Notes under the pieces: generated by a model | Told to the model about the DNA's origin: nothing | Databases searched by the model: none | The model's input: only the letters and a program-made list of their open reading frames with translations | Made by a program: the position numbers and the translations under genes | DNA from: Escherichia phage UPEC01 | Sequence record: MW233709 | Length of the DNA: 64,000 nt | Strand: one strand, 5' to 3' | Shown: positions 1,272 to 24,207 of the stretch, piece by piece | Layout of the letters: each line of letters starts with the position of its first letter | How positions within the stretch are numbered: position 1 is the first letter of the stretch

Positions 1272-3332
1272 ATGTCTGAACAATTAAATGAACTCTTTGA
1301 CAAATATATCGAAGCCTTCGGTTATCCTGTCATTAATATGAACCCAAAATACAAGGTCCCACAGGTTTGGCAATTCGGTGTTCCTGGGACAAATTCTCTT
1401 ATGGCTCGTTTGATGCAATTCACGGGCAAAGAAACGGTTAAACAATATAAACGCGGTGATGCGATTGCCGAGGTATTTCTGTTATCCGGGACTTCACATG
1501 GCCATGCTATTCCTCTGAAGGGTGGTCTAGGTGAAAAACCTCTTGACGCGATTAACCTGATTTTTGTTACAGTCTGGGAAAGCATTAAACTAGGTAAACC
1601 TGATGTAGTCTTGTTCCGTTTCCCATCCAAAAAGATGAAAGGACAAGACCAAGCTGTTATTCGTATTATGAATCGACTGATTCAAATGAAAACCAGCGGA
1701 CGTTATCATGTTCTTCCGAATGCTTCTGGCCTCGGTAAAAAGAACGCTTATGTAATTATGTACAAAAAGGGTGTTGACCTGCTTTCGGTTGATGGTATGC
1801 CACCAGTCCCTGAGAAATATCAAAAAGTTGAAACTAAAGTTGGCGATGTATTCACCAATAAAGATACAGGCGCGCAAGTCTCCAAACAAGAAATCGCAGC
1901 CGAAGTTCTGATTAACGCAGCAAACAAAAAGACCGACGCAGCTGTTGCCCAGAAAACTAAAATCAGTCGCCGAGCTATTGCACAAGCCCAGTACGCACCA
2001 AGTGATTCCGTGCCAGAAGGTTGGGACGAAATTGATGCAGAAGCTGCTAAGTTTAGTCGACCGGCTACGGCAGAACTTATCGATGATTATGAAGAACTGG
2101 AAATTTTTGTTCGACCTTCCGAAACGAATACTATGGCTCGTATGCGCGCCGCGGATACGGCTATGCGAGCAAATGGTGTTTGGAAAGAAGAAATTCGTGT
2201 TGAAGACTCTGACCCAATTTTTAACCGTATGCATCGTGAACTTAAACGTGCCCCAGTTGGTAGCATGAAGCAGATGCAGATTTTTGCCGAATCATGCGCA
2301 GAGATTCTTAACCTTCGCAAAGCCGCATTTATCGAAAGAAAAATGAATGATGCTCCTCCTAACCTGGATGCAGCCACTTATGCAGCCTCGCTCTGGGAAA
2401 AAGAATACACAAGCGCCATTCGTGTTGCAGTTAAAGACTTTGCCGAAGAAGCATCAGAAAATACTCTTAATTTCACAGCAGGGTATACTGACAACCGTTT
2501 CCATTATGGCCAGCGAGAAGCAATTGCAGATTATTGTGGAGCAAACTATGCCGATATTAATAATTATTTGATGGGCAAATATTATGAAGAAGAAGCTGAA
2601 TTCCTAAATCTAGACAGAGTTGTCGAAACAATTAAGGAATTGGATTCGGCCTTTGAAATTGGACATAAGTTGCCGCCTAATACAACTCTTTGGCGTGGTC
2701 AATATTTAAATGTTCCTACATTTGATAAAATTAAGCAATCGAAATTATTTTATTTCAGGAACTATGTATCAACGTCGTTTAAACCGATTATCTTTGGTGG
2801 TTGGGTGGCGAACGTTGCTATGGCTGCAGTTCATCAGGACTATCGTGATGGGACATCTTTCCAGGCTGATGACGAAATTGTTTTACCAGATATGCCGGAT
2901 GCACGCCGCGACCACGTAATGATGCATGTTGGTTGGAAAATTTCTGGGGCGGACTTAATTAACGTAATTGTTCCTGGGGAATTGTCAAGCAACCCGTCCG
3001 AGCAGGAAGTTATTCTTCCTCGTGGGACTGTAGTTAAGATTACCAAAATTACTGATGCTTCGTATCAAGGAAACGCGAACGTCAAAATGCTGGAAGCTGA
3101 TATCCAGACTACGGACCAACTGGATGAAAATGCAGTTATCTATGATGGCGATGTGTTGATGGAAACTGGTGAGCTTGTCGTTTATCAGGGCGAGGAAACA
3201 GAAGAGCCAGTAGAATCTGTTGACTTTGCATCGTTTGCATCCTCTGGTGTAACGAAGAAAGTCAATCAAGGTCTTGGTATTCTTGCTAGTTGTATTAATT
3301 TGGAAGCTATTCCTCCTAAATTCCTTTCGTAG
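1272..3332 (+). CDS. alt: Alt, packaged ADP-ribosyltransferase
   Basis: 686 aa; segments ETKVGDVFTNKDTGAQV...KISRRAIAQAQ, FYFRNYVSTS, LMETGELV and C-terminal DFASFASS...GILASCI match T4 Alt (about 682 aa, recalled); late promoter TATAAATA 25 nt upstream. Confidence 0.9.
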   Translation: MSEQLNELFDKYIEAFGYPVINMNPKYKVPQVWQFGVPGTNSLMARLMQFTGKETVKQYKRGDAIAEVFLLSGTSHGHAIPLKGGLGEKPLDAINLIFVTVWESIKLGKPDVVLFRFPSKKMKGQDQAVIRIMNRLIQMKTSGRYHVLPNASGLGKKNAYVIMYKKGVDLLSVDGMPPVPEKYQKVETKVGDVFTNKDTGAQVSKQEIAAEVLINAANKKTDAAVAQKTKISRRAIAQAQYAPSDSVPEGWDEIDAEAAKFSRPATAELIDDYEELEIFVRPSETNTMARMRAADTAMRANGVWKEEIRVEDSDPIFNRMHRELKRAPVGSMKQMQIFAESCAEILNLRKAAFIERKMNDAPPNLDAATYAASLWEKEYTSAIRVAVKDFAEEASENTLNFTAGYTDNRFHYGQREAIADYCGANYADINNYLMGKYYEEEAEFLNLDRVVETIKELDSAFEIGHKLPPNTTLWRGQYLNVPTFDKIKQSKLFYFRNYVSTSFKPIIFGGWVANVAMAAVHQDYRDGTSFQADDEIVLPDMPDARRDHVMMHVGWKISGADLINVIVPGELSSNPSEQEVILPRGTVVKITKITDASYQGNANVKMLEADIQTTDQLDENAVIYDGDVLMETGELVVYQGEETEEPVESVDFASFASSGVTKKVNQGLGILASCINLEAIPPKFLS

Positions 3333-3334
3333 GG

Positions 3335-3364
3335 GTTTACAAGCACAAGGAAGTGCGATACAAT
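3335..3364 (+). promoter_or_regulatory. candidate early promoter (GTTTAC, 18 nt, TACAAT)
   Basis: T4-early-like -35/-10 pair between alt and ORF 3396. Confidence 0.35.
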
Positions 3365-3395
3365 GTTCATATCAATTGCACATGAGGAAAACAAA

Positions 3396-3686
3396 ATGAA
3401 ATCATCTTTTCGCTTTAATGGTCAGGAACTGGTAGTTGAGAATGTTATCCCGGCTTCAGAAGAGTTTGACAGCGCGGTGGGTAATGAACTGCGGCGTGTG
3501 TTTGGCGAAGATAAGAAGTTTGACCTTCGCCCTGTTGAAAACTTTGTAAATTCTGAACAAACAGAAAATATTTTTAATGGTGTAGTAACTGGGCAACTTG
3601 AATCTGAAGCACCAATTGCAATTACAGTCTTTGCTAAGAAAGAAGTTGTAATGACTGCAGCAGGTTTCATTTCATTCCGCAAATAA
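3396..3686 (+). CDS. hypothetical small protein (alt-adjacent, possibly alt.-1-like)
   Basis: 96-aa ORF from internal ATG of the track ORF 3363..3686; candidate early promoter upstream and terminator hairpin directly downstream. Confidence 0.55.
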   Translation: MKSSFRFNGQELVVENVIPASEEFDSAVGNELRRVFGEDKKFDLRPVENFVNSEQTENIFNGVVTGQLESEAPIAITVFAKKEVVMTAAGFISFRK

Positions 3687-3715
3687 AAAAGGGACCTTCG
3701 GGTCCCTTTCTTTTT
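3685..3715. terminator. bidirectional terminator (GGGACC-UUCG-GGUCCC) between ORF 3396 and gene 54
   Basis: A-run, perfect 6-bp stem with UUCG loop, T-run; identical hairpin recurs at 16341 and inverted at 40801. Confidence 0.8.
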
Positions 3716-4673
3716 ATAATATACGTTGACTTCCACCAGAGACTGTTCTCCCAGAACCAGTGAACGTATTGTACAGACTTGTTAATCCAGATTGAGCACC
3801 AGACAAGCGGCTCAATCTGGCAACTTCTGAGTTCAAGTTGTTATCTGAACTAATACCAGATACACCTTTAATAACCTTATCTTCCAACCATTCCAATGCC
3901 GCAGCTCTTCCCACCGCACCAGTTGACATAACGCGATAAGCAAAAGTCACATCAAATGTAGCTATCTGATTATCCCCTTCATAACTCAATTCAGGTGCAG
4001 ATACACTTACAGGAACACAACCAGTTAACATAACAACCGTATGCGGTAACCCATTACGCGAATGAAGGTTAACCTGAATATCAGCTTCAACGTCTTCAGG
4101 CAAGGCCCTTAGCTGGGTAACTGGGTCCTGTACAGAGTTGACCCAATCGTTAAATGCTCTAAAGTTCCCTGCCTCTGAATCCATTCTAAAGCTCAATACC
4201 AACGGAGAATATTCTCTCCCGGTTATCTTGATATTTGGTGCATTATGGTTAAGGTCCATTTCGTAGTTCAATGTGTTATCCGGAAGCTTAACAGAGTGAA
4301 CTAATAGACCAGCCGTTGGATAAGCCATATTAAAGAAATCAAGCAGGTAAGTACCAACCTCAAATTCCCCTAGTAACGATTGCACAACACGGTTACTCAT
4401 TGCCCCGATAAGATATTTGCTTATCCCTGATTTGCGAATAAGCTTTTGTGTCCCGGCAGTAACAAGAGTTGTTATCCCCTGAGTTAAGTCACCTTGTGTT
4501 AATCCGAACCAATCTGAGTTAACAGGAAGGTTACTGAATAATGCGCCACCGAACTGGTCCAGAAGATTCTGAGATTTGGAGGAAGGCGTGGTCGCGAAGA
4601 CCACACTAAAAAGGTTATTCCTCTGCAAGTCGATATTAATCGCTTGTGTTTGAAATTCTTGTAAAGTAAACAT
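3714..4673 (-). CDS. 54: baseplate tail-tube initiator gp54
   Basis: 319 aa; position and size match T4 gp54 (320 aa recalled), downstream of 48 in the 29-48-54 block. Confidence 0.8.
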   Translation of the reverse strand: MFTLQEFQTQAINIDLQRNNLFSVVFATTPSSKSQNLLDQFGGALFSNLPVNSDWFGLTQGDLTQGITTLVTAGTQKLIRKSGISKYLIGAMSNRVVQSLLGEFEVGTYLLDFFNMAYPTAGLLVHSVKLPDNTLNYEMDLNHNAPNIKITGREYSPLVLSFRMDSEAGNFRAFNDWVNSVQDPVTQLRALPEDVEADIQVNLHSRNGLPHTVVMLTGCVPVSVSAPELSYEGDNQIATFDVTFAYRVMSTGAVGRAAALEWLEDKVIKGVSGISSDNNLNSEVARLSRLSGAQSGLTSLYNTFTGSGRTVSGGSQRIL

Positions 4674-5767
4674 TAGAAACCTTCCGCATATAGTGAGCCA
4701 CGGTTAAGCGTAATGATTTCACGGAAAGTGATTTCAAGTACAAAAGTCGATGGCAGGTTAGGAGCAATAGCTAATCCACCGAAATGACCATCCGGAGATT
4801 TATCGAATCTTATGCTCTGAATCTGACATGGCCCAAATAGCTCCCCACGGCCATCGTACGAGCTTGTATCACCGAAGTTGCGGATATACCAGATAGTAGG
4901 GTTAGAGACCACCAGAACGTTCGTTAGGAAGCTTGTTATCTCTTCACCGAGCAACTTGCCGTCAAAGTTATCGATTGCTTCCTTTTTGAAGGTGGATTTA
5001 TACCATGTATCGATTTTATCTTTCAGCTCGGAAGCAAACGAACTTTTACCGGTTTCCCCATAGGAGTAATAGTTAAAAATCTCGTATATCTTCACTATCT
5101 GGATTAAGTCCTGGGCCGAACGTGGAGTCATTTCCCAGGTGTAAACTTTTGTCCTGTTATCAGGACCAGCATACATGCTTCGCGCGGTTGTGTAAATCTG
5201 TTCGCCGTGGTCGGCCATTACACCATTTGTAACTGATTCGAGGGCGCCGAAAACTGCAGTCGATGCGATGTTACTAAGAATACCTGTAGCTGAGCCGCCA
5301 CCTTTCGTAATAAGAGATTCACCAACATCGTTGAATCGGTGCGATACGGATTCTACATCAGACTTCGAACGAGGCAACAGGATATTTGCAACAGCGTTTG
5401 AATCAAAACTTTTACCTGTTGAGCCAGCGCCGGTTAATTTCGATTTAGCAAAAGATGTTAAACTTTTAACCGGGTTAAATGAAGCACCATTGGAAACTTT
5501 CTTTAATGAAGTCAATTGGCTTGACCTGTCTGAGCGTAATTCCGGAGATGTTCTTGAACTGAAATTGTATGCCGTGAATAACAGACCATTTTTATAAAGG
5601 TCATTAACTCGCATATCATCTGAAGAATCATTACCGGAAGCTCGTTCTGCTGGATATTGCGCCACAATAGTAGCTTGAGTCTGGGCAGCTTTTGACTGCC
5701 CAGCGGAGGTCTTAGAACCTCCGTTAAATAAACCCGCAATATCAATATCGAGTTCTTTTACTTTCAT
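4673..5767 (-). CDS. 48: baseplate tail-tube cap gp48
   Basis: 364 aa, same length as T4 gp48; ATGA-type overlap with downstream gene 54. Confidence 0.8.
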   Translation of the reverse strand: MKVKELDIDIAGLFNGGSKTSAGQSKAAQTQATIVAQYPAERASGNDSSDDMRVNDLYKNGLLFTAYNFSSRTSPELRSDRSSQLTSLKKVSNGASFNPVKSLTSFAKSKLTGAGSTGKSFDSNAVANILLPRSKSDVESVSHRFNDVGESLITKGGGSATGILSNIASTAVFGALESVTNGVMADHGEQIYTTARSMYAGPDNRTKVYTWEMTPRSAQDLIQIVKIYEIFNYYSYGETGKSSFASELKDKIDTWYKSTFKKEAIDNFDGKLLGEEITSFLTNVLVVSNPTIWYIRNFGDTSSYDGRGELFGPCQIQSIRFDKSPDGHFGGLAIAPNLPSTFVLEITFREIITLNRGSLYAEGF

Positions 5768-14529: not shown

Positions 14530-15195
14530 ATGATTGACAAGAACTACATTGAGGAAATTCGTGTCCTCGAGAAAAAAGAAGCCAAAGAAAAATTAGCCGA
14601 ATACGCAGCATCACTTGGTGTTGATGTTAAGAAAACAAAAACCTTTGATAATATGTTGGCCGACCTGGAAGCAGGACTTAAAGCATTTGCTGACATGCCT
14701 ATGCCTGATGATAATGAAGGCCTGAGCATCACTGACCTTATCGACGCCGATGATGAATTGTCAGGTGCTAAATTTGATGGCGACGAGTCAGCTAAAGAAG
14801 AAGCTAAACTCTTATTTGATGCTCCAACCGAAGCAAAGGTTGAAGTTGTTGAAATCGAAGAACCAGTTGTTGTGGTTGAAGAAGATGTTCCTTTTGTCGA
14901 AGAAAAGTTCGAAGCGGCTGTTGCTAAGGTTATCGAATCTGAAAAACCTGTATTTGCTCTGCCAAAAAACTTTAGCCCGAATTTAATGCTTATTGGTAAG
15001 AACCCTGGATTCTGTACTGTTCCATGGTGGATTTATCAGTGGATTGCCGAGACTCCAGATTGGAAAGAACGTCCAACTGCTTTCCCACATCCCACCGCGC
15101 ACCAAACTCTATTCAGTTTGATTTATTACATCAATCGTAATGGGTCTGTTCTAGTACGAGAAACTCGTAACTCATCTTTTGTCACTTTAAAATAA
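14530..15195 (+). CDS. putative Inh-like protein (inhibitor of prohead protease), assignment by position only
   Basis: 221-aa acidic protein between uvsW and hoc, where T4 encodes inh (about 226 aa, recalled); no sequence-level confirmation. Confidence 0.45.
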   Translation: MIDKNYIEEIRVLEKKEAKEKLAEYAASLGVDVKKTKTFDNMLADLEAGLKAFADMPMPDDNEGLSITDLIDADDELSGAKFDGDESAKEEAKLLFDAPTEAKVEVVEIEEPVVVVEEDVPFVEEKFEAAVAKVIESEKPVFALPKNFSPNLMLIGKNPGFCTVPWWIYQWIAETPDWKERPTAFPHPTAHQTLFSLIYYINRNGSVLVRETRNSSFVTLK

Positions 15196-15204
15196 GGGTT
15201 TATT

Positions 15205-16338
15205 ATGGCTTATACCGTAACTATTGCTCCTTTGGCGGCTACGGCCGTTATTGGAGCAACAACCAATTTCACTGCGACCGGTTCCGGTGCTGCAGCTGAA
15301 GGTACCGAATCATTTGTCTGGACCGTTGATGGCGTTCCTCAATCTTCTGTGACTGCTGCAATGGATTATGTTGCTGTTGGTCCAGCAGGCAGTAAGACTA
15401 TTAAAGTTGTTGCAACAACTACACCAGCGGACGGCGAACCAGAAACAGCTGAAGCCGAAACAACTTTAACTATCCAGAATAAAACAATGCCTGCTATTAC
15501 ATTGACTTTAGACCCGGCCTCTGTTACTAAAGAAGTGGGGCAATCTCAAGTTGTTACTGCTAACGTGACAGGCGCTCCTTCTGGTGCAACAATCGCTTAT
15601 GTTTGGAAACGAAATGCCGACGTAATCGCAGGTCAAACTGGTAAAACTATTACCGTCACCGAATCAGCAGAAGCAAATTATACATTGAACTGTGAAGTTA
15701 CTGTTTCTGCACCCGATTATAATAATGGCACCGCATCTAAAGGAGCTGCGGTAACTTTTGTTAAGAAAACTATGTCGGGTGTTTCTGTTACTTTAGCACC
15801 AACCTCTATTAATGTTCCTGAAGGAACTCCGGCTTCATTTAAAGCAGATGTAGTTGGCGCACCGAGTGGAGCTACTTTTGCCTATTCTTGGAAGAAAGAC
15901 GGTTCTCCTGTAGTTGGCACCACGGATACTTTAGCAATCGATACAAGCGCCGAAGGTTCCCAGTTAATTGAAGTTTCTGTTGTTGTATCTGCTACAGATT
16001 ATAATCCTGTTACAGTTACCAAAACCGGTAATGTAACAGTCACGGCTAAAGTCGCACCAGTTCCAGAGGGTGAACTACCTTACGTTCATCCGCTGCCAGT
16101 TCGTAATTCAGCTTATATCTGGTGTGGTTGGTGGGTTATGGATGAAATTCAGAAAATGACTCTTGCTGGACAAGACTGGAAAACCGATGACCCAGATAGC
16201 CCGTATTATTTGCACCGATATACACTTCAAAAAATGATTACCGACTATCCAGAGGTTGATGTACAGGAATCTCGTAATGGTCGAATTATTCATCGCACCG
16301 CTTTAGAAACTGGTATTATATACGATTACGTTTATTAA
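15205..16338 (+). CDS. hoc: Hoc, outer capsid decoration protein with Ig-like domains
   Basis: 377 aa; repeated Ig-like segments and C-terminal ...PEGELPYVHPLPVRNSAYIWCGWWVMDEIQKMT...DWKTDDPDSPYYLHRYTLQKM... match T4 Hoc as recalled. Confidence 0.9.
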   Translation: MAYTVTIAPLAATAVIGATTNFTATGSGAAAEGTESFVWTVDGVPQSSVTAAMDYVAVGPAGSKTIKVVATTTPADGEPETAEAETTLTIQNKTMPAITLTLDPASVTKEVGQSQVVTANVTGAPSGATIAYVWKRNADVIAGQTGKTITVTESAEANYTLNCEVTVSAPDYNNGTASKGAAVTFVKKTMSGVSVTLAPTSINVPEGTPASFKADVVGAPSGATFAYSWKKDGSPVVGTTDTLAIDTSAEGSQLIEVSVVVSATDYNPVTVTKTGNVTVTAKVAPVPEGELPYVHPLPVRNSAYIWCGWWVMDEIQKMTLAGQDWKTDDPDSPYYLHRYTLQKMITDYPEVDVQESRNGRIIHRTALETGIIYDYVY

Positions 16339-16340
16339 TT

Positions 16341-16370
16341 AAAAAGGGACCTTCGGGTCCCTTTATTTTT
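16341..16370 (+). terminator. rho-independent terminator after hoc
   Basis: AAAAAGGGACCTTCGGGTCCCTTTATTTTT. Confidence 0.85.
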
Positions 16371-16459
16371 ATGGTACTGAGCAAACGTTGTCTGGACCCT
16401 TTCTCCAGTGAGTCTTTGTGGTCATACCATAACAATTGTTCATCTGACATAAAACTCCT

Positions 16460-16489
16460 GTTTACAAGTTAAAAATTCCATGTTAAGAT
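16460..16489 (+). promoter_or_regulatory. candidate early promoter (GTTTAC, 18 nt, TAAGAT)
   Basis: Upstream of ORF 16507. Confidence 0.35.
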
Positions 16490-16506
16490 AGCTTCACTAA
16501 CTCAAC

Positions 16507-16710
16507 ATGAGAATCATTATGGATAAGGTTAAAGTACATTTTCTGCATGAATCTGGCATGACATTTATTGAAATCGCCAAGGTATTAGGCGGGACTGCTA
16601 AAGAGATGGCAAAAGCCTGGGTTGATGTAGAACAAGCCAAAGCTAAATTTAAAGCGAAAGAAAAGATTGTTTATCGTAAACGTTTGAATAACAAAAAGGT
16701 GAAGAAATGA
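16507..16710 (+). CDS. hypothetical small basic protein (possible HTH)
   Basis: 67-aa ORF (alternative ATG 16519); segment MTFIEIAKVLGGTAKEMAKAW is HTH-like; candidate early promoter upstream. Confidence 0.5.
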   Translation: MRIIMDKVKVHFLHESGMTFIEIAKVLGGTAKEMAKAWVDVEQAKAKFKAKEKIVYRKRLNNKKVKK

Positions 16711-16970
16711 CATTCGCAGAAGAACTACGCCAAATGGCAAAAGAGTCACAAGATAAAGTTGCAAATGACTTTATTGCTATATTCCGCAAAGTGGCTATTG
16801 CCGCCGCTGAAAATGGCAAAGATTTTGTTAATATGGCAGTTTCTGAAAAAGAATATGAAGAAGGCAATCGTGGAAAAATATCTGATTTTCTGCGGGCAGA
16901 AAAATTTACATCATTTACCTGGAATTTTGATTGGCAAGAAAACAAGCCAACATTGTATGTAAAATTCTGA
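16707..16970 (+). CDS. hypothetical protein
   Basis: 87-aa ORF overlapping previous stop (ATGA); sits in the T4 24.2/24.3 position. Confidence 0.5.
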   Translation: MTFAEELRQMAKESQDKVANDFIAIFRKVAIAAAENGKDFVNMAVSEKEYEEGNRGKISDFLRAEKFTSFTWNFDWQENKPTLYVKF

Positions 16971-16974
16971 CCTT

Positions 16975-17013
16975 TTTGCTTCAAATAAAATTGTGGTATA
17001 ATGGTTCTAGACC
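16975..17013 (+). promoter_or_regulatory. MotA-box middle promoter upstream of rnlB with GGTTCTAGACC box
   Basis: TTTGCTTCA, 13-nt spacer, TATAAT 16997-17002, GGTTCTAGACC 17003-17013. Confidence 0.6.
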
Positions 17014-17100
17014 TTCCGATACGATTAATTTCTTTTCAGAGAAAGAAAGTATAGAGAGTCTAATTTATAATGATATTTATAACATCAAAAGTGAGAGATT

Positions 17101-18108
17101 ATGTTTAAGAAATACAACAGCCTTGAAAATCACTATAACAACAAGTTCATTGAAAAGATTCGCCTGCAAGGCTTCACCAACGGTGAATGGGTAGCTCGTG
17201 AAAAGATTCATGGTACCAACTTTTCATTAATCATTGAACAAGACAATGTGACATGTGCGAAACGCACTGGACCTATCCTACCTGCAGAAGATTTTTATGG
17301 TTATGAAATTGTATTAAAGAACTATGCAGATTCTATTAAATCTGTACAGAAACTTTTGCAGGATATTAATTACCAGGCATATCAGATTTATGGCGAGTTT
17401 GCTGGTACAGGTATTCAGAAGAATGTGAATTACGGCGATAAAGATTTCTATGTGTTTGATATCCGCGTTACTAAAGAAGATGGTTTTGAATCCGTCCTGA
17501 CTGACACACTTATGGAAGCCTTTTGTATTATTCATAAGTTTAAAGTTGCTCCGCGCCTGGCTACTGGTAGCTTTGAAGACCTTATTAAGCTACCTAATGA
17601 CCTGGATTCTGTGGTCCCTGATTACAATTTTACAGTGGATAATGCAGGATTGACTACAGCAAATACCACTGATTTTGATGCAAAGGTGGAAGGTAAAGTA
17701 TTCACTGCTGAAGGATTTGTATTAAAACCTGATGTTCCTGCCTGGTTACCTAACGGCGAGCGTGTGGCGATTAAATGCAAGAACTCTAAATTCAGCGAAA
17801 AGAAAAAGTCTGATAAGCCTATTAAGGCCGCTGTTGTGTTGTCCCAGGAAGACCTGGATATTTTATGGCAGTTCACTGATTACGTGACTGTTAACCGTAT
17901 TAATAATGTTATCAGTAAAATTGGGGAAGTATCGCCGAAGGATTTTGGGAAGGTAATGGGTTTGACTGTCCAGGATATCCTGGAAGAAGCTGGTCGTGAA
18001 GGCCTTGAATTGACCCAGTCAGAAAATCCTGTTGAAGTTAAAAAGCAACTTATCACAAATGTAAGAGAAACATTAAGACATGTTTGGATTGCATTAATTA
18101 GTGAATAA
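17101..18108 (+). CDS. rnlB: RNA ligase 2
   Basis: 335 aa; [19 protein letters not shown]...[16 protein letters not shown] (nucleotidyl-transferase lysine motif KIHGTN) ...[22 protein letters not shown] matches T4 Rnl2 as recalled. Confidence 0.9.
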
Positions 18109-18139
18109 AAAAAAGGGCCGCAAGGCCCTTATTCTTTTT
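18105..18139. terminator. bidirectional terminator between rnlB and the gene 24 paralog (GGGCC-GCAA-GGCCC)
   Basis: A8 run, GNRA-loop hairpin, T-run. Confidence 0.8.
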
Positions 18140-19412
18140 CCAGTGGCGGAAGTTTAACGCCAAGATAAGAACTCAATTGGCTTTGGTTAGCCATCTTATC
18201 CATATCAGCCCCATCAATAAGGCGGGCTTCTTTATCGTCTTTAGCAACGGTATAGGGGTTCGCTGTCAATGCATAACGAGCTAACAGTGCAACCGTAGGC
18301 TGTAAGCTTTCAGGGTCAACAATAACCTTGAATTCTCCGACCGATGTATCCCCCTCATCATCAACTTCGCTAAGTCCTTCCGTATAAGGCGCATAATACA
18401 AAGATGCGACCGTCTGACCTTCACCCATATCAGCATTTACACCGACAATAACATAATCACATGGACTATTCATATCTGCGTAAAGAGGCAAACCGTTCTT
18501 CAGAACACCATAGGCTAATTCATCCTGGTCTTCCTTTTTCTCAACCCAGCCAGAAGCGGCTAAAATAGCTGCACAACGGGAAGAAGCAACCGCATATGTA
18601 CCAGCAAACGAAGTCTGACGTTGAACTGCAGAATTCATTTCACACATATAATAATACAGGGTTCGTGCGCGGTCCTGTGCGTTATCATATTTCGGGTCAG
18701 TGAGATTCAACACACCTTTTTCAGAAACACCTTGTACCTTGAAGCGAGAACTAACAGTAATAAGGGATTGCAATACATCCTTATTAATTTCCTCTGCCAT
18801 TTGAATGCCGAGAATATTATCGATGAAGTCTGTTGCATCGAAACCGTTTGCTTCCAGGTCCTGAGCAAGCTCGACAGTTAAAGAAGTTTTCAACTTTCTG
18901 GATTTAACTTCAGTCTGCCATTTATCGATACGGAAACCAGCTTCAGCAATTTCAGGATGCCCCTTTTCAAATTTATCAGTGAAAGCAGCATCTGACATCA
19001 TTCTTATATGTCCAGCAGCAATGGCTTCAGAAATAACTTCACCTAAATCAGTTTCGAGTGTCCCGGCAAAGGGGGAAGCTTCCAGAACTTTGAATACAAC
19101 GCTTTCAAACTGAAACATATCGCCGACTGCATAAGCTTCATCTTTGTTCGTAAATTCTGGAATATTCTTACGCTCGAACATACCAATCTGACCTGCAAAT
19201 GTTGCTCCACCGAGATATGTCATTTTATCATCTGGGTTCAGAACACGAACACCATACAACGCTGCAACAGGCTGTGTAGTTTTCTGTTCGGCAACGAGTG
19301 CTTTAAAAATTCGTTTATTCGTGGCCTGGGTATAAGAAAGCAAATTAGGACGGGCGACCTGGTTGGCCGCCGTTAATGTTGATTCGTGAATTAGTGCGTT
19401 AATCTTTTGCAT
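18129..19412 (-). CDS. head vertex protein gp24 paralog (divergent second copy)
   Basis: 427 aa; aligns end-to-end with the adjacent gp24 (shared blocks TNQPVAALYG, KSRKLKT.LTVELAQD.EANGF, NKDVLQSLITVS, YAPYTEGL, ANPYTVAKDDKEARLIDG) at an estimated 55-60% identity. Confidence 0.85.
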   Translation of the reverse strand: MQKINALIHESTLTAANQVARPNLLSYTQATNKRIFKALVAEQKTTQPVAALYGVRVLNPDDKMTYLGGATFAGQIGMFERKNIPEFTNKDEAYAVGDMFQFESVVFKVLEASPFAGTLETDLGEVISEAIAAGHIRMMSDAAFTDKFEKGHPEIAEAGFRIDKWQTEVKSRKLKTSLTVELAQDLEANGFDATDFIDNILGIQMAEEINKDVLQSLITVSSRFKVQGVSEKGVLNLTDPKYDNAQDRARTLYYYMCEMNSAVQRQTSFAGTYAVASSRCAAILAASGWVEKKEDQDELAYGVLKNGLPLYADMNSPCDYVIVGVNADMGEGQTVASLYYAPYTEGLSEVDDEGDTSVGEFKVIVDPESLQPTVALLARYALTANPYTVAKDDKEARLIDGADMDKMANQSQLSSYLGVKLPPLEKE

Positions 19413-20693
19413 TTACGCCTCATAAATGATTGGCGGAAGTTTAACACCGAGCAGATAAGACATATTGCTCTGACCGGCCATTAAATCCATATTGGTTGCA
19501 TCGATAATACGAGCTTCTTTATCGTCTTTAGCAACGGTGTAAGGGTTAGCTGAAAGTGCATAACGAACCATCAAAGAGATAGCTGGTTGCAAACTGTCAG
19601 GGTCCACAATGACTTTAAACGCGCCTACATGCTCTTCATCATCTAAGTCCAGGCCTTCGGTATAAGGAGCATAGAAGATTGAGCCTACGACTTCGTTTCC
19701 GCCGTAATTTTCTTTAACGCCAACGGTTACATAATCCAATGGACTGTTAACATCACAGAATACAGGAAGACCATTAATCAAATAACCGTACGCTGTTTCA
19801 GGAAGCCACTGTTCGTCTTCAGGTTTATGCTTCAGCCAGCCAGAACCGGCCAACATAGCAGCAACACGGCTGGAGGCAACAACAAAGGTACCGGAATAAG
19901 ATGTAGTTTTCTGAATTTCGGAGTTCATTTCGCAAACCAGTTCGTACAGTTTACGTGCGCCTTCTGGAGCTGCATCATATGTTAAATCGATGGTGCCATT
20001 GTCAGAAACACCAGTTACTTTATAACGCTTGGAAACGGTAATAAGAGACTGAAGAACATCTTTGTTAATTTCATCTGCCATAATAGTAGCAAGCAGGTCT
20101 TCCAGGAAAGCAGGAGCATTAAAGCCATTTGCTTCCATATCCTGAGCAAGCTCAACAGTTAATGCAGTTTTCAATTTACGGGATTTAACAGGAGCATTCC
20201 ATTTATTAACCTGGAATACAGCGTTACTAATTTCAACATCACCGGCTTCAAATTTCTCGGTGTGCGCTGCATCAGGAACCAAACGAATGGTTAATGCAAT
20301 AAGACCTTCTTGCAGAACATCTGATAATACAGTTTCGGTAGTCGATGCAAATGGATTATCAACCAGAGCTTTGTAAACGATATTTTGGTATTTTACATAT
20401 TCGCCTTTAGCAACAGGCTGAGTGGCTGTAGTTAATTCTGGAATAGTTGTACGGTCTTTAGAACCGACTTCGCCTCCATAAGTAGCGCCCGTCTGGAAAC
20501 TGAATTCATTATCAGGAGTAAGATATTTAACACCATACAGTGCAGCAACAGGCTGGTTAGTACGTTGTTCAGCGATGATATCGCGGTAAATCAATTTAGT
20601 CGTAGCGCGGGTCAAAGCAACAAGATTCGGGCGGCCCAATGAGTTGCTGGTAGTAATAGTTGACTCGCGCAGTAATTTGTTAATCTTTGCCAT
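19413..20693 (-). CDS. 24: head vertex protein gp24
   Basis: 426 aa; MAKINKLLRESTITTSNSLGRPNLVALTRATTKLIY...EQRTNQPVAALYGVKYL closely matches T4 gp24 as recalled; late promoter 27 nt upstream. Confidence 0.9.
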   Translation of the reverse strand: MAKINKLLRESTITTSNSLGRPNLVALTRATTKLIYRDIIAEQRTNQPVAALYGVKYLTPDNEFSFQTGATYGGEVGSKDRTTIPELTTATQPVAKGEYVKYQNIVYKALVDNPFASTTETVLSDVLQEGLIALTIRLVPDAAHTEKFEAGDVEISNAVFQVNKWNAPVKSRKLKTALTVELAQDMEANGFNAPAFLEDLLATIMADEINKDVLQSLITVSKRYKVTGVSDNGTIDLTYDAAPEGARKLYELVCEMNSEIQKTTSYSGTFVVASSRVAAMLAGSGWLKHKPEDEQWLPETAYGYLINGLPVFCDVNSPLDYVTVGVKENYGGNEVVGSIFYAPYTEGLDLDDEEHVGAFKVIVDPDSLQPAISLMVRYALSANPYTVAKDDKEARIIDATNMDLMAGQSNMSYLLGVKLPPIIYEA

Positions 20694-20719
20694 TTGCGCT
20701 TTCCTTTTGTGATATACTT

Positions 20720-20727
20720 TATTTATA
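20720..20727 (-). promoter_or_regulatory. late promoter TATAAATA (gene 24)
   Basis: Octamer on minus strand 27 nt upstream of gp24 ATG. Confidence 0.7.
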
Positions 20728-20733
20728 AAAGTT

Positions 20734-20780
20734 GTTTACAACCAGATTAAGATAAGACATAATGATTCCATACTGAGTTA
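20734..20780 (+). promoter_or_regulatory. early promoter cassette G (GTTTAC, 18 nt, CATAAT, then conserved leader GATTCCATACTGAGTTA)
   Basis: Drives ORF 20805; the leader sequence recurs at 58316 and 59361. Confidence 0.55.
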
Positions 20781-20804
20781 ACAAACAAAACCTGGAGTTT
20801 AAAA

Positions 20805-21086
20805 ATGAACAAAGCAACTTTCCTTCTGAACACCTTTAAAAAATTGGAAATTGAAGTTATTGCATTGGTCAACAAATACCCAAATGGCGTTAATGGTAAT
20901 GCTCTGAACAAACTAGTTAAAAAATATGAAAACTTAGCATATGACACTGATTTCTGGTGGAATGGTAATTATTCTACTCACACTAAAGATAAAAATGGTA
21001 ACTGGTTGAAACTTCAAGAAAACAATGTTAACTTCAGAGACCTCATCAAGCGCCGGGTAGAAGTTCATTTAAATGGTATGGTATGA
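20805..21086 (+). CDS. hypothetical small protein, early gene embedded between genes 24 and 23 on the opposite strand
   Basis: 93-aa ORF with its own early promoter (GTTTAC, 18 nt, CATAAT), GGAG RBS, and a bidirectional terminator downstream. Confidence 0.55.
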   Translation: MNKATFLLNTFKKLEIEVIALVNKYPNGVNGNALNKLVKKYENLAYDTDFWWNGNYSTHTKDKNGNWLKLQENNVNFRDLIKRRVEVHLNGMV

Positions 21087-21090
21087 AAAC

Positions 21091-21120
21091 AAGAAAGGGA
21101 CCTCAAGGGTCCCTTTTTAT
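21091..21120. terminator. bidirectional terminator between ORF 20805 (plus) and gene 23 (minus)
   Basis: AAGAAAGGGACCTCAAGGGTCCCTTTTT: 6-bp stem flanked by A-run and T-run. Confidence 0.8.
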
Positions 21121-21136
21121 TTAACTTAATCTAAGA

Positions 21137-22696
21137 TTAAATTCCTTTAACATATACGCGGCGGAAGTAACCGTTCAAGCCGAGGCTGTTAACGATGTCC
21201 GGCATGCCGTTTTGAATACGCTTGGTCGGAGCCTGAGCTGTCGGGTCAGCGAACGGGTTAATACCGATACCGTAACGGGTTTTGAAGCCCATAACCGGCT
21301 GGAAGTTTTTCGGGTCAGAGCCACGCAGCGGAGTCAGTGCAACATATGGTGCATAGTAGATACCAGCATCCATTTCGTTAGCGCCTTTGTAACCGATGGT
21401 GAAGTAGTCTGCACGAGCATACTGGTCGATATAGACACGGTATTTGCCACCCAGAACACCAGCGAACACAGCTTTAGTGGTGTCAACGTTGAAACCTTTA
21501 CCCAGACCCTGAGCAGCATAAGATACGGAGGTATCAACTGCAGCCAGTACGTTAACTACGTTACGGGAAGCGATGATGAAGTTACCTGCACCACGGCCAG
21601 TCTGACGAGCGATTTCAGCAGCTTCTTTGTCAATCTGGAACAGTAAAGCTTTGAAGCTTTCACCAGCCCAACGAGCACCACGGATATCAATCGGGTCCTG
21701 GAAGTCAAACACACCAGCTTTAGCGCCAACGGTGTTGGTCATACCAGATTTACCAACCTGAGCGGAGTAGTTAATCCAATCGATAACTTCGCGGTTGATT
21801 TCCAGCATAATTTCGGTAGCCAGAATACCACTCAATTCAGCATCAGCATCCATACCGTGGACAGCGCGGAGGTCCTGCGCCAGTTCGATAGAGTAGCTTG
21901 CTTTAAGCTGACGGGATTTAGCTTCGATAACTTGTTTGTCGATGCGGAAGCCCATTTCGTTCCACGGGTTATCAGTAGAACCGTTAAAGCCTTCCTGCAA
22001 TTCGGCGATAGAGGTAGCCATACCTTCAGCGATTTCTGCCAGCTTACCAGCTTCGAGCAGTTTGGTAACTTCAGCGTCAAGTTTAGCAGCATCAGTAGCG
22101 GCGGCATCGACGGTTACAGCTTCAACAGCCTGGTAGTGCGCAGAACCGGTTGCTTCGAAGAAGTGTGAATAAATTTTACCAACGGTAAGAACTTTGCTTG
22201 CAGCCAGAGCTTCGAAAGCTTCAGCAGCGCCCTGACCAGAGAACATAGCGTTCGGAGCATACATCGGGTGGAAAGCTTCTTTAGCACCAGCAGCTACAGG
22301 GTCTTTACCGTAAACTGCACGCAGGGCAAATACCTGGCCAGTCGGGTTGTTCAGAGGCTGTACGCCACAAATATCAAACGCAATCAGATGCGGGATAGCA
22401 CGACGAACCATACCCATAACTGCCGGCCCAATCTGAGTTACTGCGCCAGAGGTCTGGCCAGCAGCGATATTGGTAGCATCATAACCATGGTCACCACCGA
22501 TTTCAGCTTCGGTCAGGAAAGAACCAAATGCTTCGGAGATTTTTTCGTCACGGTATTCAGGAGCGGTCAGAATATCTTGTTCCTGGTTTTCAAAGATTTT
22601 AGCGATGATAGCTTGTTTAGAAGCACCAACGATTTCCGGAAGAGCTTCGTTTTCCAGCAGAGCGGACCATTTTTGAACTAATGCATTCTTTTTCAT
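21137..22696 (-). CDS. 23: major capsid protein gp23
   Basis: 519 aa; very close to T4 gp23 throughout (e.g. SKQAIIAKIFENQE, IAAGQTSGAVTQIGPAVMGMVRRAIP, C-terminal FRRVYVKGI). Confidence 0.97.
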   Translation of the reverse strand: MKKNALVQKWSALLENEALPEIVGASKQAIIAKIFENQEQDILTAPEYRDEKISEAFGSFLTEAEIGGDHGYDATNIAAGQTSGAVTQIGPAVMGMVRRAIPHLIAFDICGVQPLNNPTGQVFALRAVYGKDPVAAGAKEAFHPMYAPNAMFSGQGAAEAFEALAASKVLTVGKIYSHFFEATGSAHYQAVEAVTVDAAATDAAKLDAEVTKLLEAGKLAEIAEGMATSIAELQEGFNGSTDNPWNEMGFRIDKQVIEAKSRQLKASYSIELAQDLRAVHGMDADAELSGILATEIMLEINREVIDWINYSAQVGKSGMTNTVGAKAGVFDFQDPIDIRGARWAGESFKALLFQIDKEAAEIARQTGRGAGNFIIASRNVVNVLAAVDTSVSYAAQGLGKGFNVDTTKAVFAGVLGGKYRVYIDQYARADYFTIGYKGANEMDAGIYYAPYVALTPLRGSDPKNFQPVMGFKTRYGIGINPFADPTAQAPTKRIQNGMPDIVNSLGLNGYFRRVYVKGI

Positions 22697-22717
22697 GTGT
22701 TGTATAACCTTATTAAA

Positions 22718-23536
22718 TTAAGAAATTCGTGATGCTGCGAGAGCAGACAAGTCCGCGAAGGACAGGGTAGGCTTGGCGCCTTTTTCTTCAACTGCTTCTG
22801 AAATGTAATTCAGTGCCGCAGCATCGTCTACATTTTTATTTATAGCGGCTTCGGTGATTGGTTTGTCGGTGGGTTCTACCTGACCTTTAACCATTTCAAC
22901 GATAGCGCCAATTTTGGTACCGAATGCATCAGAGTATTCCATGCCTTCTACCAGAGAACCAACTTTTTCTTTTTGGGATTCAGTCAGGTCTTTAGTTGCT
23001 TCAGTCAACGCAACTTCACGTTGGACATAATTGATATAAGCATCACGCTTAGAAACTTCTTCGAACAGGTTAGCGGTTTCTTCTTTCTGTTCAGCCAGTT
23101 CTTCCTGCATTTCTGCAACAACATCGACAGATTCTTCTGGAACAACAACGTTGTGCTCAACGAACAGTTCTTTCATGCCGGTGAACATGGATTCGAACAG
23201 GTCAGCTTTAATGCCACGGTCGACAGCCAGTTTATTTTCAGCGAGCCATTCTTTAGCAACGTGGTCCAGGAATTTAGCTGCAGATTCTTTCAGTTTTTTC
23301 TCTGCTTTTTCGTCGGCTTCTTCTTTATTCTTTTCGACTTCTTCTTCAGCTTTTTCAGCGATGGCGTGAATGTGAGATTCTGCCAGTTTGATGGCGTGTT
23401 GCTTGACGGTAGCTTCGAATACAGTGCCGAAGGTAGCTTTCGCTTCCGGGGACAAATTAACTGATTCGAAAATACTATCGAGAGCAACGGAAGCATCGAT
23501 ATTCTGAGCTTCAGAAATGAGTTGTTCTTTAAGCAT
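22718..23536 (-). CDS. 22: prohead core scaffold protein gp22
   Basis: 272 aa, acidic coiled-coil; size and position match T4 gp22 (269 aa); late promoter 30 nt upstream. Confidence 0.88.
   Translation of the reverse strand: MLKEQLISEAQNIDASVALDSIFESVNLSPEAKATFGTVFEATVKQHAIKLAESHIHAIAEKAEEEVEKNKEEADEKAEKKLKESAAKFLDHVAKEWLAENKLAVDRGIKADLFESMFTGMKELFVEHNVVVPEESVDVVAEMQEELAEQKEETANLFEEVSKRDAYINYVQREVALTEATKDLTESQKEKVGSLVEGMEYSDAFGTKIGAIVEMVKGQVEPTDKPITEAAINKNVDDAAALNYISEAVEEKGAKPTLSFADLSALAASRIS
22837..22844 (-). promoter_or_regulatory. candidate late promoter TATAAATA inside gene 22 (gene 23)
   Basis: Octamer on minus strand about 140 nt upstream of gp23 ATG; none found closer. Confidence 0.4.
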
Positions 23537-23565
23537 TTTGTAGTCCTGTTGTTAAGATATACATT

Positions 23566-23573
23566 TATTTATA
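23566..23573 (-). promoter_or_regulatory. late promoter TATAAATA (gene 22)
   Basis: Octamer on minus strand 30 nt upstream of gp22 ATG. Confidence 0.65.
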
Positions 23574-24207
23574 ACGTCTTTAAAGCCTCTGCGAGAGCCA
23601 TAAAGGCGTCGTCGGCACTTGTATCGGCTTCCGCCGTTTGTGATTCTGTAATCTGCTTTGGTTTGACCCAAGCGTCCGGAGCACTTGGCCCCCATACTGC
23701 ATCTACTCCAACCGTCAATTTAAAACCTTCATTGACGATGTTATAACCTTTTGCTGATTTAGTCAGGGAACCGAGCCCACGACTAGATACACCAGGAATC
23801 CAACCCGCTCTTATATTCGCAGCAAGTTTATCACCTGGGCCATGGTCGCCTTCGATAATACGCGCGCGGCCATATACATCATTCCCTTTCCACCACATTT
23901 CCTCGATAATAATTGCCGCCTGCATAGGGTCAACGTTTGCACGAGGTGGATGGTTTAATTCTCCAAGAGACTGCTTGGTTTCAACCTGTTCGGCGATATA
24001 GTCCGCAACGGCTTTTTCCAAAATATGTTTAGGATAAAGTCGTTTATTACGGTTAACAACTTCAGCTTGTAGGAAAATACCTTCAATATAAAGTCCTGGC
24101 TTTAAACCGCTGCTGGAACCATCATGAGATTCCAACATCGGTACACCATCTTTAATTTCGCCCGGTTGACCCCAGTGTTCGATTAGTAACTCTGGTTTCT
24201 GTTCCAT
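23569..24207 (-). CDS. 21: prohead core protease gp21
   Basis: 212 aa; LIEHWGQPGEI.DGVPMLES.DGSSSGLKPGLYIEGIF.QAEVVNRNKRLYPK...GDHGPGDKLAANIRAGWIPGVSSRGLGSL matches T4 gp21. Confidence 0.95.
   Translation of the reverse strand: MEQKPELLIEHWGQPGEIKDGVPMLESHDGSSSGLKPGLYIEGIFLQAEVVNRNKRLYPKHILEKAVADYIAEQVETKQSLGELNHPPRANVDPMQAAIIIEEMWWKGNDVYGRARIIEGDHGPGDKLAANIRAGWIPGVSSRGLGSLTKSAKGYNIVNEGFKLTVGVDAVWGPSAPDAWVKPKQITESQTAEADTSADDAFMALAEALKTL

Follow-up and report, generated by a model that had tools for sequence, protein, structure and literature searches.

Escherichia phage UPEC01 carries what is probably an old, conserved pair of capsid vertex (gp24) genes

Bacteriophage T4 has one gene 24 only (annotation of NC_000866), as an earlier note on the DNA studied here, made from its letters alone, had said. 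In the window, by which we mean the whole 64,000-nucleotide (nt) stretch of Escherichia phage UPEC01 that was analyzed (sequence record MW233709), two genes of this type lie end to end on the minus strand, raising the question of what the second one is: a spare left behind by a duplication, or an old gene with a role of its own. The upstream gene, 24A (19413..20693, 426 amino acids (aa)), is the ortholog of T4 gp24, the capsid vertex protein, and the downstream gene, 24B (18129..19412, 427 aa), appears to be a second, ancient gp24 paralog. On balance, we consider it probable that the two form an old and conserved pair of capsid vertex (penton) genes, with 24B a deep paralog, or possibly a xenolog, of its T4-orthologous neighbor.

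Both products are full-length members of the gp24 family. BLASTP aligned 24A and 24B over 428 columns with 56% identity and 75% positives (E=1e-173), within the 55-60% that the earlier note had estimated, and each protein aligns with T4 gp24 end to end (~424 residues), at 70% identity for 24A and 55% for 24B. The description of the upstream copy as very close to T4 gp24 was therefore overstated, and the two abutting, full-length homologues on the minus strand were borne out by the open reading frames (ORFs), the TAA|ATG junction and the end-to-end alignments. Identity to gp23 of the window is ~29% for each copy, confined to the C-terminal ~250 residues. Pfam PF07068 (Gp23 family) matches 24A with 328.4 bits and 24B with 327.5 bits (cut-off 24.4), both proteins fall into phrog_138, and a tblastn search with 24B found three gp23-family genes only in the whole window: gp23, 24A and 24B. 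Both copies thus combine a closer homology to gp24 than to gp23 with the PF07068 domain, the cleavage motif described below and a late-gene position after gene 23, and for 24B an AlphaFold2 (AF2) model also has the HK97-like fold with an I domain.

The gene pair is already known: it is annotated in about a hundred related genomes and is new neither to databases nor to this phage. A megablast search with positions 18000-21200 matched 77 phage records, the best being Gaprivervirus-type coliphages (CJ20, VR20, VR7 and others) at up to 96.3% nt identity, followed by Dhakavirus (JS98, IME08) at ~82%. At the protein level, 24A is 97% identical to VR7 24(1) and 90% to JS98 24a, while 24B is 98% identical to VR7 24(2), 95% to JS98 24b and fully identical (100%) to its counterparts in VR20 and TH22. 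Existing records name the genes '24(1)' and '24(2)' in VR7, '24a' and '24b' in JS98, 'capsid vertex protein I/II' in VR20, VR25 and VR26, 'head vertex protein I/II' in Salmonella phage CGG4-1, and 'head vertex protein' twice in S16. The JS98 papers of 2004 and 2007 are said to have been the first to report the duplication of gene 24.

Comparison across T4-like genomes, a check that the earlier note had proposed, found the second copy in Gaprivervirus, Dhakavirus, Gelderlandvirus (S16, STML-198, Melville, CF-SP2), Marfavirus F48, the Erwinia phages Cronus, IT22 and FBB1, and Proteus phage ABTNLPp2. Single copies were found in T4, Jiaodavirus KP01, Slopekvirus Matisse, Biquartavirus avDM9 and Krischvirus FL20, as well as in nine Tegunavirus and Acinetobacter phage loci in which gp24 shares <60% identity with B and where 3 kb on either side was checked. 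In a tblastn search, gp24 at E<=1e-100 occurred in 1089 phage records at 1206 matching places, so about 117 GenBank records carry two copies; a second tblastn tally gave 1417 records and 1535 places. What the earlier note had called a tandem duplication therefore stands as two coupled paralogs, but not as something peculiar to this genome, since the pair occurs in ~117 phages of at least five genera. We examined B-bearing loci in two sets, 8 (window, VR7, JS98, CF-SP2, F48 and three metagenomic contigs) and 17 from IMG/VR. Both ORFs are intact throughout the two sets, and every B-bearing locus examined has the order g23, 24A, 24B, with the two 24 genes abutting or overlapping. With the pairs of JS98, VR7, VR20 and S16 the window shares both genes, their order and their coupling; we see no essential difference from the JS98- and VR7-type pairs, and regard the window as a new mosaic isolate, with a best match of 96.3% nt over the locus and a JS98-like hoc/rnlB flank.

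The arrangement of the two genes points to joint expression. The head-cluster gene order in the window is 21-22-23-(orf)-24A-24B, in which gene 23 (21137..22696, minus strand), an ORF identified from the VR7 annotation as the major capsid protein, is the upstream neighbor and older paralog. The 24A stop codon is followed without a gap by the 24B start codon at a TAA|ATG junction (window DNA reads GAGGCGTAAATGCAA; TATGAGGCGTAAATGCAAAAG), and a Shine-Dalgarno sequence for 24B, GAGG (19418..19421, minus strand), lies within the last 24A codons, 5 nt before the 24B ATG, which together suggest translational coupling of the pair. The two genes are in the same frame in the window, and across eight lineages the junction takes the forms TAAATG, TAATG and ATGA; because the frame differs between lineages, a conserved fusion of 24A and 24B by read-through was ruled out.

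Transcription signals are consistent with this layout. A motif search found a T4-type late promoter box, TATAAATA, at 20720..20727 on the minus strand, 26 nt upstream of the 24A start codon, and none within 24A or between 24A and 24B. Such boxes are frequent in the window, with 22 found against 4.9 expected and a count of 22 reached in 0 of 100 shuffles. They lie mainly on the minus strand at 20-41 kb, the late structural gene block. A terminator scan placed one terminator after gene 23 (21094-21116, minus strand) and an intrinsic one, GGGCCttgcGGCCC followed by a T run, at 18113..18130 (minus strand), where it ends the 24A-24B unit and also serves, as a bidirectional terminator, the convergent neighbor rnlB (17101-18108, plus strand). 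With a box before 24A, no box between the genes, and terminators after gene 23 and after 24B, the predicted unit is a single bicistronic late one: late promoter, 24A, coupled 24B, terminator.

How old the second copy is was addressed with an alignment of 135 gp24 sequences, made up of both window proteins, a set of named references and, from a protein search, 120 cluster representatives. A neighbor-joining (NJ) tree with 200 bootstraps was followed by 300 more bootstrap trees (two distance corrections x 150). In the NJ tree all B copies fall into one clade (100% bootstrap) whose stem is long, at 0.175 substitutions per site. A second 100% clade unites the A copies of Gaprivervirus, Dhakavirus, Gelderlandvirus and Marfavirus and is sister (94%) to a clade of T4, CC31, Merlin, PEi20 and PM2, and the resulting A+T4 supergroup (98% bootstrap) excludes B. 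B was monophyletic in all 300 additional trees and fell within the A+T4 supergroup in none of them. 24A and 24B are therefore not each other's closest relatives, as 24A groups with T4 gp24 and 24B stands in its own clade, and since B never falls inside the A+T4 group, either the split is ancient or B came in laterally.

Shared residues help to date the split. B has N32, R56, a short AP loop and, in part, F36 in common with the gp24 of Krischvirus, Slopekvirus and Biquartavirus, states that were lost in all other Tevenvirinae. Since B and these outgroups share them, the A/B split would be at least as old as the radiation of the enterobacterial T-even phages, and this is the age to which the sequences point. 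For the same reason, the short AP loop, N32 and R56 were rejected as novel specializations of B.

The A genes that accompany B occur at several places in the A+T4 supergroup: P0045 (locus L010) groups with CC31 and T4, P0084 (L012) groups with PEi20 and PM2, and the A-type copy of FBB1 sits at the base in the NJ tree. This scatter implies either four or more losses of B, one of them on the T4 line, or lateral movement, and probably both processes contributed to the distribution of B. Most probably the second copy is old and T4 lost its 24B, in which case the single gene 24 of T4 would represent a reduced state reached through that loss, not an ancestral template. The phylogeny would in this way reverse the intuitive story, with the second copy old rather than newly added.

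A stronger form of lateral movement, in which B was captured from a deep-branching T4-like lineage and then spread from genus to genus by homologous recombination over the conserved g23...rnlB flanks, is a serious contender that we nonetheless hold to be the less probable course. It would account for the outgroup states of B (N32, R56, short AP loop) and for the lack of a stable B position among the basal Tevenvirinae (Jiaodavirus, Tegunavirus and Acinetobacter phages) in the NJ trees with 300 bootstraps. One well-supported conflict between the A tree and the B tree (P0007, P0009 and P0014 versus their partners P0083, P0102 and P0104) also fits capture, as do the mosaic surroundings of the locus in the window itself and contig L010 (Logan SRR22802695), whose gp23 (94% aa) and RnlB (91% aa) resemble those of Jiaodavirus but whose gp24 locus is entirely unlike that of Jiaodavirus KP01. 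Capture does not readily explain why the nonsynonymous distances of A and B covary (r=0.95) and rank the relatives alike in 8 genomes, or why gene order and coupling are identical in all B-bearing loci examined, and protein and metagenome searches turned up no lineage that carries a B-type gp24 alone and could have been the donor.

The gp24 of KP01 was itself considered as an A/B recombinant. Its identity is 64% with A and 63% with B, and in a sliding-window comparison it has A-like ends and a B-like middle. Its B-like states also occur in the single-copy basal phages TG1, ZZ1, Acj9 and X20 and partly in the outgroups, and no segment reaches the ~90% identity expected for a recent hybrid. Since the B-like states are common to other basal lineages, they are best explained as ancestral, and the recombinant origin was rejected.

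Substitution patterns indicate that both genes are being maintained. The ratio of nonsynonymous to synonymous substitutions (dN/dS) was calculated by the Nei-Gojobori method (NG86) on codon alignments from 8 genomes, giving 28 genome pairs. Between the window and VR7, dN/dS was 0.051 for A and 0.026 for B, and between the window and JS98 it was 0.053 for A and 0.020 for B; mean dN(B) was ~0.8 x dN(A), and the correlation of dN(A) with dN(B) given above holds over all 28 pairs. By these estimates both 24A and 24B are under strong purifying selection, and 24B is at least as constrained as the T4 ortholog. A and B are 56-57% identical to each other in each of the 8 genomes, and dS between them is saturated, so that no gene conversion has taken place.

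These values bear directly on the simplest account of the locus, a lineage-specific tandem duplication whose second copy drifts as a spare, or an assembly artefact. The tandem, same-strand, equal-length layout is what such an event would leave, and the earlier note had raised both a spare copy under divergent selection and, as something unlikely, an artefact. Looking for a copy on its way to becoming a pseudogene, we instead found a dN/dS of 0.020-0.026 for B and intact ORFs in the 8 + 17 loci, and such low ratios together with intact ORFs exclude a spare, decaying or fast-diverging copy. B joined A in 0 of 300 bootstraps, the A-B dS is saturated, and the pair is present in ~117 independent GenBank genomes plus metagenomic contigs, leaving this account with a negligible probability.

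Residues 8-11 of both proteins match the N-terminal gp21 cleavage motif L/I-x-E|S, as LRE|S in A and IHE|S in B. E10 and S11 are invariant in 64 of 64 aligned gp24 sequences, and L7, E10 and S11 are invariant within the B clade. In T4, gp21 cuts 10 residues off gp24, so that mature gp24* starts at residue 11 (PMC9546572), and chain a of PDB entry 5vf3 begins at residue 11. The AF2 model of 24B has a mean predicted local distance difference test score (pLDDT) of 73.6; its best PDB match is T4 gp24* (5vf3_a, E=8e-50, template modeling (TM) scores 0.82/0.85), and gp23 ranks behind. T4 gp24 (PDB 1YUE, 5VF3, 7VS5) has the same domains, cleavage motif and place after gene 23 as 24A and 24B.

The differences between the two copies are unevenly distributed. 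Divergence is greatest in residues 61-160 (I domain), with 30-55% identity per 20-residue window; the AP loop has 4 residues fewer in B than in A or T4 gp24, and B has 2-3 extra residues near positions 239 and 350. Between the B and non-B groups, 108 alignment columns are near-invariant and common to both. At a threshold of >=85% conservation in each group there are 163 conserved positions, of which 14 differ between the groups, and half of these 14 lie within residues 21-70 (A26S, T32N, L34R, Y36F, K56R, Y57V, T68G). This is an enrichment of 7/28 versus 7/135 (Fisher p=0.003) for a region that was picked post hoc. Four of the changes, T32N, L34R, Y57V and E335Q, are fixed in B at positions invariant in all other Tevenvirinae gp24, so that 24B departs from T4 gp24 at otherwise invariant N-arm and linker residues. 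In the T4 capsid, residues 26-29 of gp24 form a parallel beta interaction with the I-domain linker of the adjacent subunit in the same pentamer, linker 1 (~residues 60-81) is stabilized via intracapsomer contacts, residues 11-20 extend onto the neighboring hexamer, and the AP loop contacts gp23 (PMC9546572).

Taken together, we infer that both copies are very likely made late, cleaved after E10 and incorporated as vertex subunits with non-redundant roles. According to this proposal, 24A and then the coupled 24B would be expressed from one late transcript, and both proteins would be processed by the prohead protease gp21 with removal of 10 N-terminal residues. B would then prefer B as its neighboring subunit, giving separate B pentamers at a subset of vertices. 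That B forms pentamers of its own at some of the 11 non-portal vertices is suggested by the concentration of its fixed changes in residues 26-37 and in linker 1 (56-68), elements that pair between T4 gp24 subunits, and we judge it a real possibility that falls somewhat short of even. More speculative still, and on present evidence unlikely, is a capsid with two kinds of penton in which 24B pentamers would occupy a defined vertex subset, such as the apex opposite the portal or a ring of five, and of which the single-gp24 capsid of T4 would be a version simplified by repeated loss of 24B.

Several points weigh against the proposal that both copies are vertex subunits, with B in pentamers of its own. 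All 55 of 55 T4 gp24* subunits, at 11 vertices, are conformationally alike (PMC9546572), so geometry alone does not require two types of penton. The interface enrichment test was post hoc, and several of the B-specific states (N32, R56 and the short AP loop) are ancestral, being common to outgroup phages. Codon adaptation relative to each phage's own gp23 was slightly higher for A than for B in 5 of 6 phages, a weak hint that 24B may be made at a lower level than 24A. We found no proteomic or structural paper on any two-copy phage, nothing in the accessible literature on what the second copy does or whether it is present in virions, and gp24 structures in the PDB from T4 only.

The uniformity of the T4 vertices is in keeping with interchangeable A and B subunits that co-assemble at random, in mixed pentamers or as mixed pentons, and are kept for dosage or robustness. 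Tight translational coupling implies that the two are synthesized together, and the 108 shared near-invariant columns would suit subunits able to stand in for each other. Redundancy leaves unexplained, however, why the copies stay 56-57% identical in every genome without gene conversion, why B is more constrained than A, and why B has fixed residues at sites that are otherwise invariant; moreover, T4-like phages with a single gene make sufficient gp24. We therefore regard random co-assembly as improbable. Still less probable, though well above the spare-copy account, is that 24B has been co-opted and is no longer a vertex subunit, serving instead as a prohead-only factor, a portal-adjacent capsomer or a decoy for host defenses that sense capsids. 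The long stem of the B clade, its changed N-terminal and linker residues and its slightly lower codon adaptation could reflect such a change of role, but B is still full-length, with every domain, the cleavage motif and the predicted gp24* fold in place, many of its states are ancestral rather than novel, and it is encoded on the same late head-gene transcript.

Vertex subunits with distinct roles, the reading we prefer, would repeat a logic already seen in the split of gp23 and gp24, where a capsid-shell gene was tandemly duplicated in the late head operon and the copies then specialized; all three proteins belong to PF07068. The two cases differ in depth, as gp23 and gp24 are ~29% identical and have proven distinct roles in hexamer and pentamer, whereas A and B are 56% identical and a distinct role for B is putative. 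Models of the phage capsid come from T4, which has one penton protein, whereas several T4-like genera keep a second penton-type gene under strong constraint, and the two-copy genera include therapeutically used phages (Dhakavirus, Gelderlandvirus). If B does mark a special class of vertex, it would be a clear case of symmetry-breaking specialization in a prolate head.

The DNA around the pair is mosaic. Positions 16442-24200 of the window align to VR7 (Gaprivervirus) at 91% nt identity, and protein identity to VR7 is 97-99% for gp23 and the two gp24 copies. The window RnlB is 86% identical to that of JS98 and 70% to that of VR7, which in turn is 83% identical to the RnlB of T4. The switch from a JS98-like RnlB to VR7-like gp23 and gp24 places a recombination breakpoint at the bidirectional terminator (18113-18130) that directly follows 24B. 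Further out, nothing in VR7 matches the inh/hoc region (15000-16342), which aligns to JS98 (Dhakavirus) at 92-94%; VR7 is annotated with a collagen-repeat ORF on the other strand at this position. The Hoc-like protein (15205-16338, plus strand) has 377 aa versus 282 aa in JS98, and the JS98 alignment omits 15489-15763, consistent with one extra Ig-like repeat in the window Hoc.

Exchange at the gp24 locus is also suggested elsewhere. The L010 contig carries the A+B pair (2724-5278) plus an extra 239-aa ORF, and the single gp24 of Klebsiella phage KP01 (L006, 3501-4781) shares only 67% identity with the A and 63% with the B of L010. As their flanks are close but their gp24 loci are unlike, the gp24 locus seems to have been swapped between close relatives.

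Between gene 23 and 24A, on the opposite strand, lies a 93-aa ORF (20805-21086, plus strand) that corresponds to VR7ORF190c and JS98 orf173 and occupies the slot of the T4 segD homing endonuclease. It belongs to phrog_6003, a family without an assigned function, has no Pfam match, and is named 'glycosyl hydrolase family 25' in the EAWsc9 record, a label that found no support in our analysis. On the other side of the pair, the Erwinia-FBB1-like Logan contig DRR865494 (L013) has a gene after 24B (2676-3674) whose 332-aa product gives a faint collagen-repeat Pfam match and recalls the collagen-like ORF near the VR7 locus.

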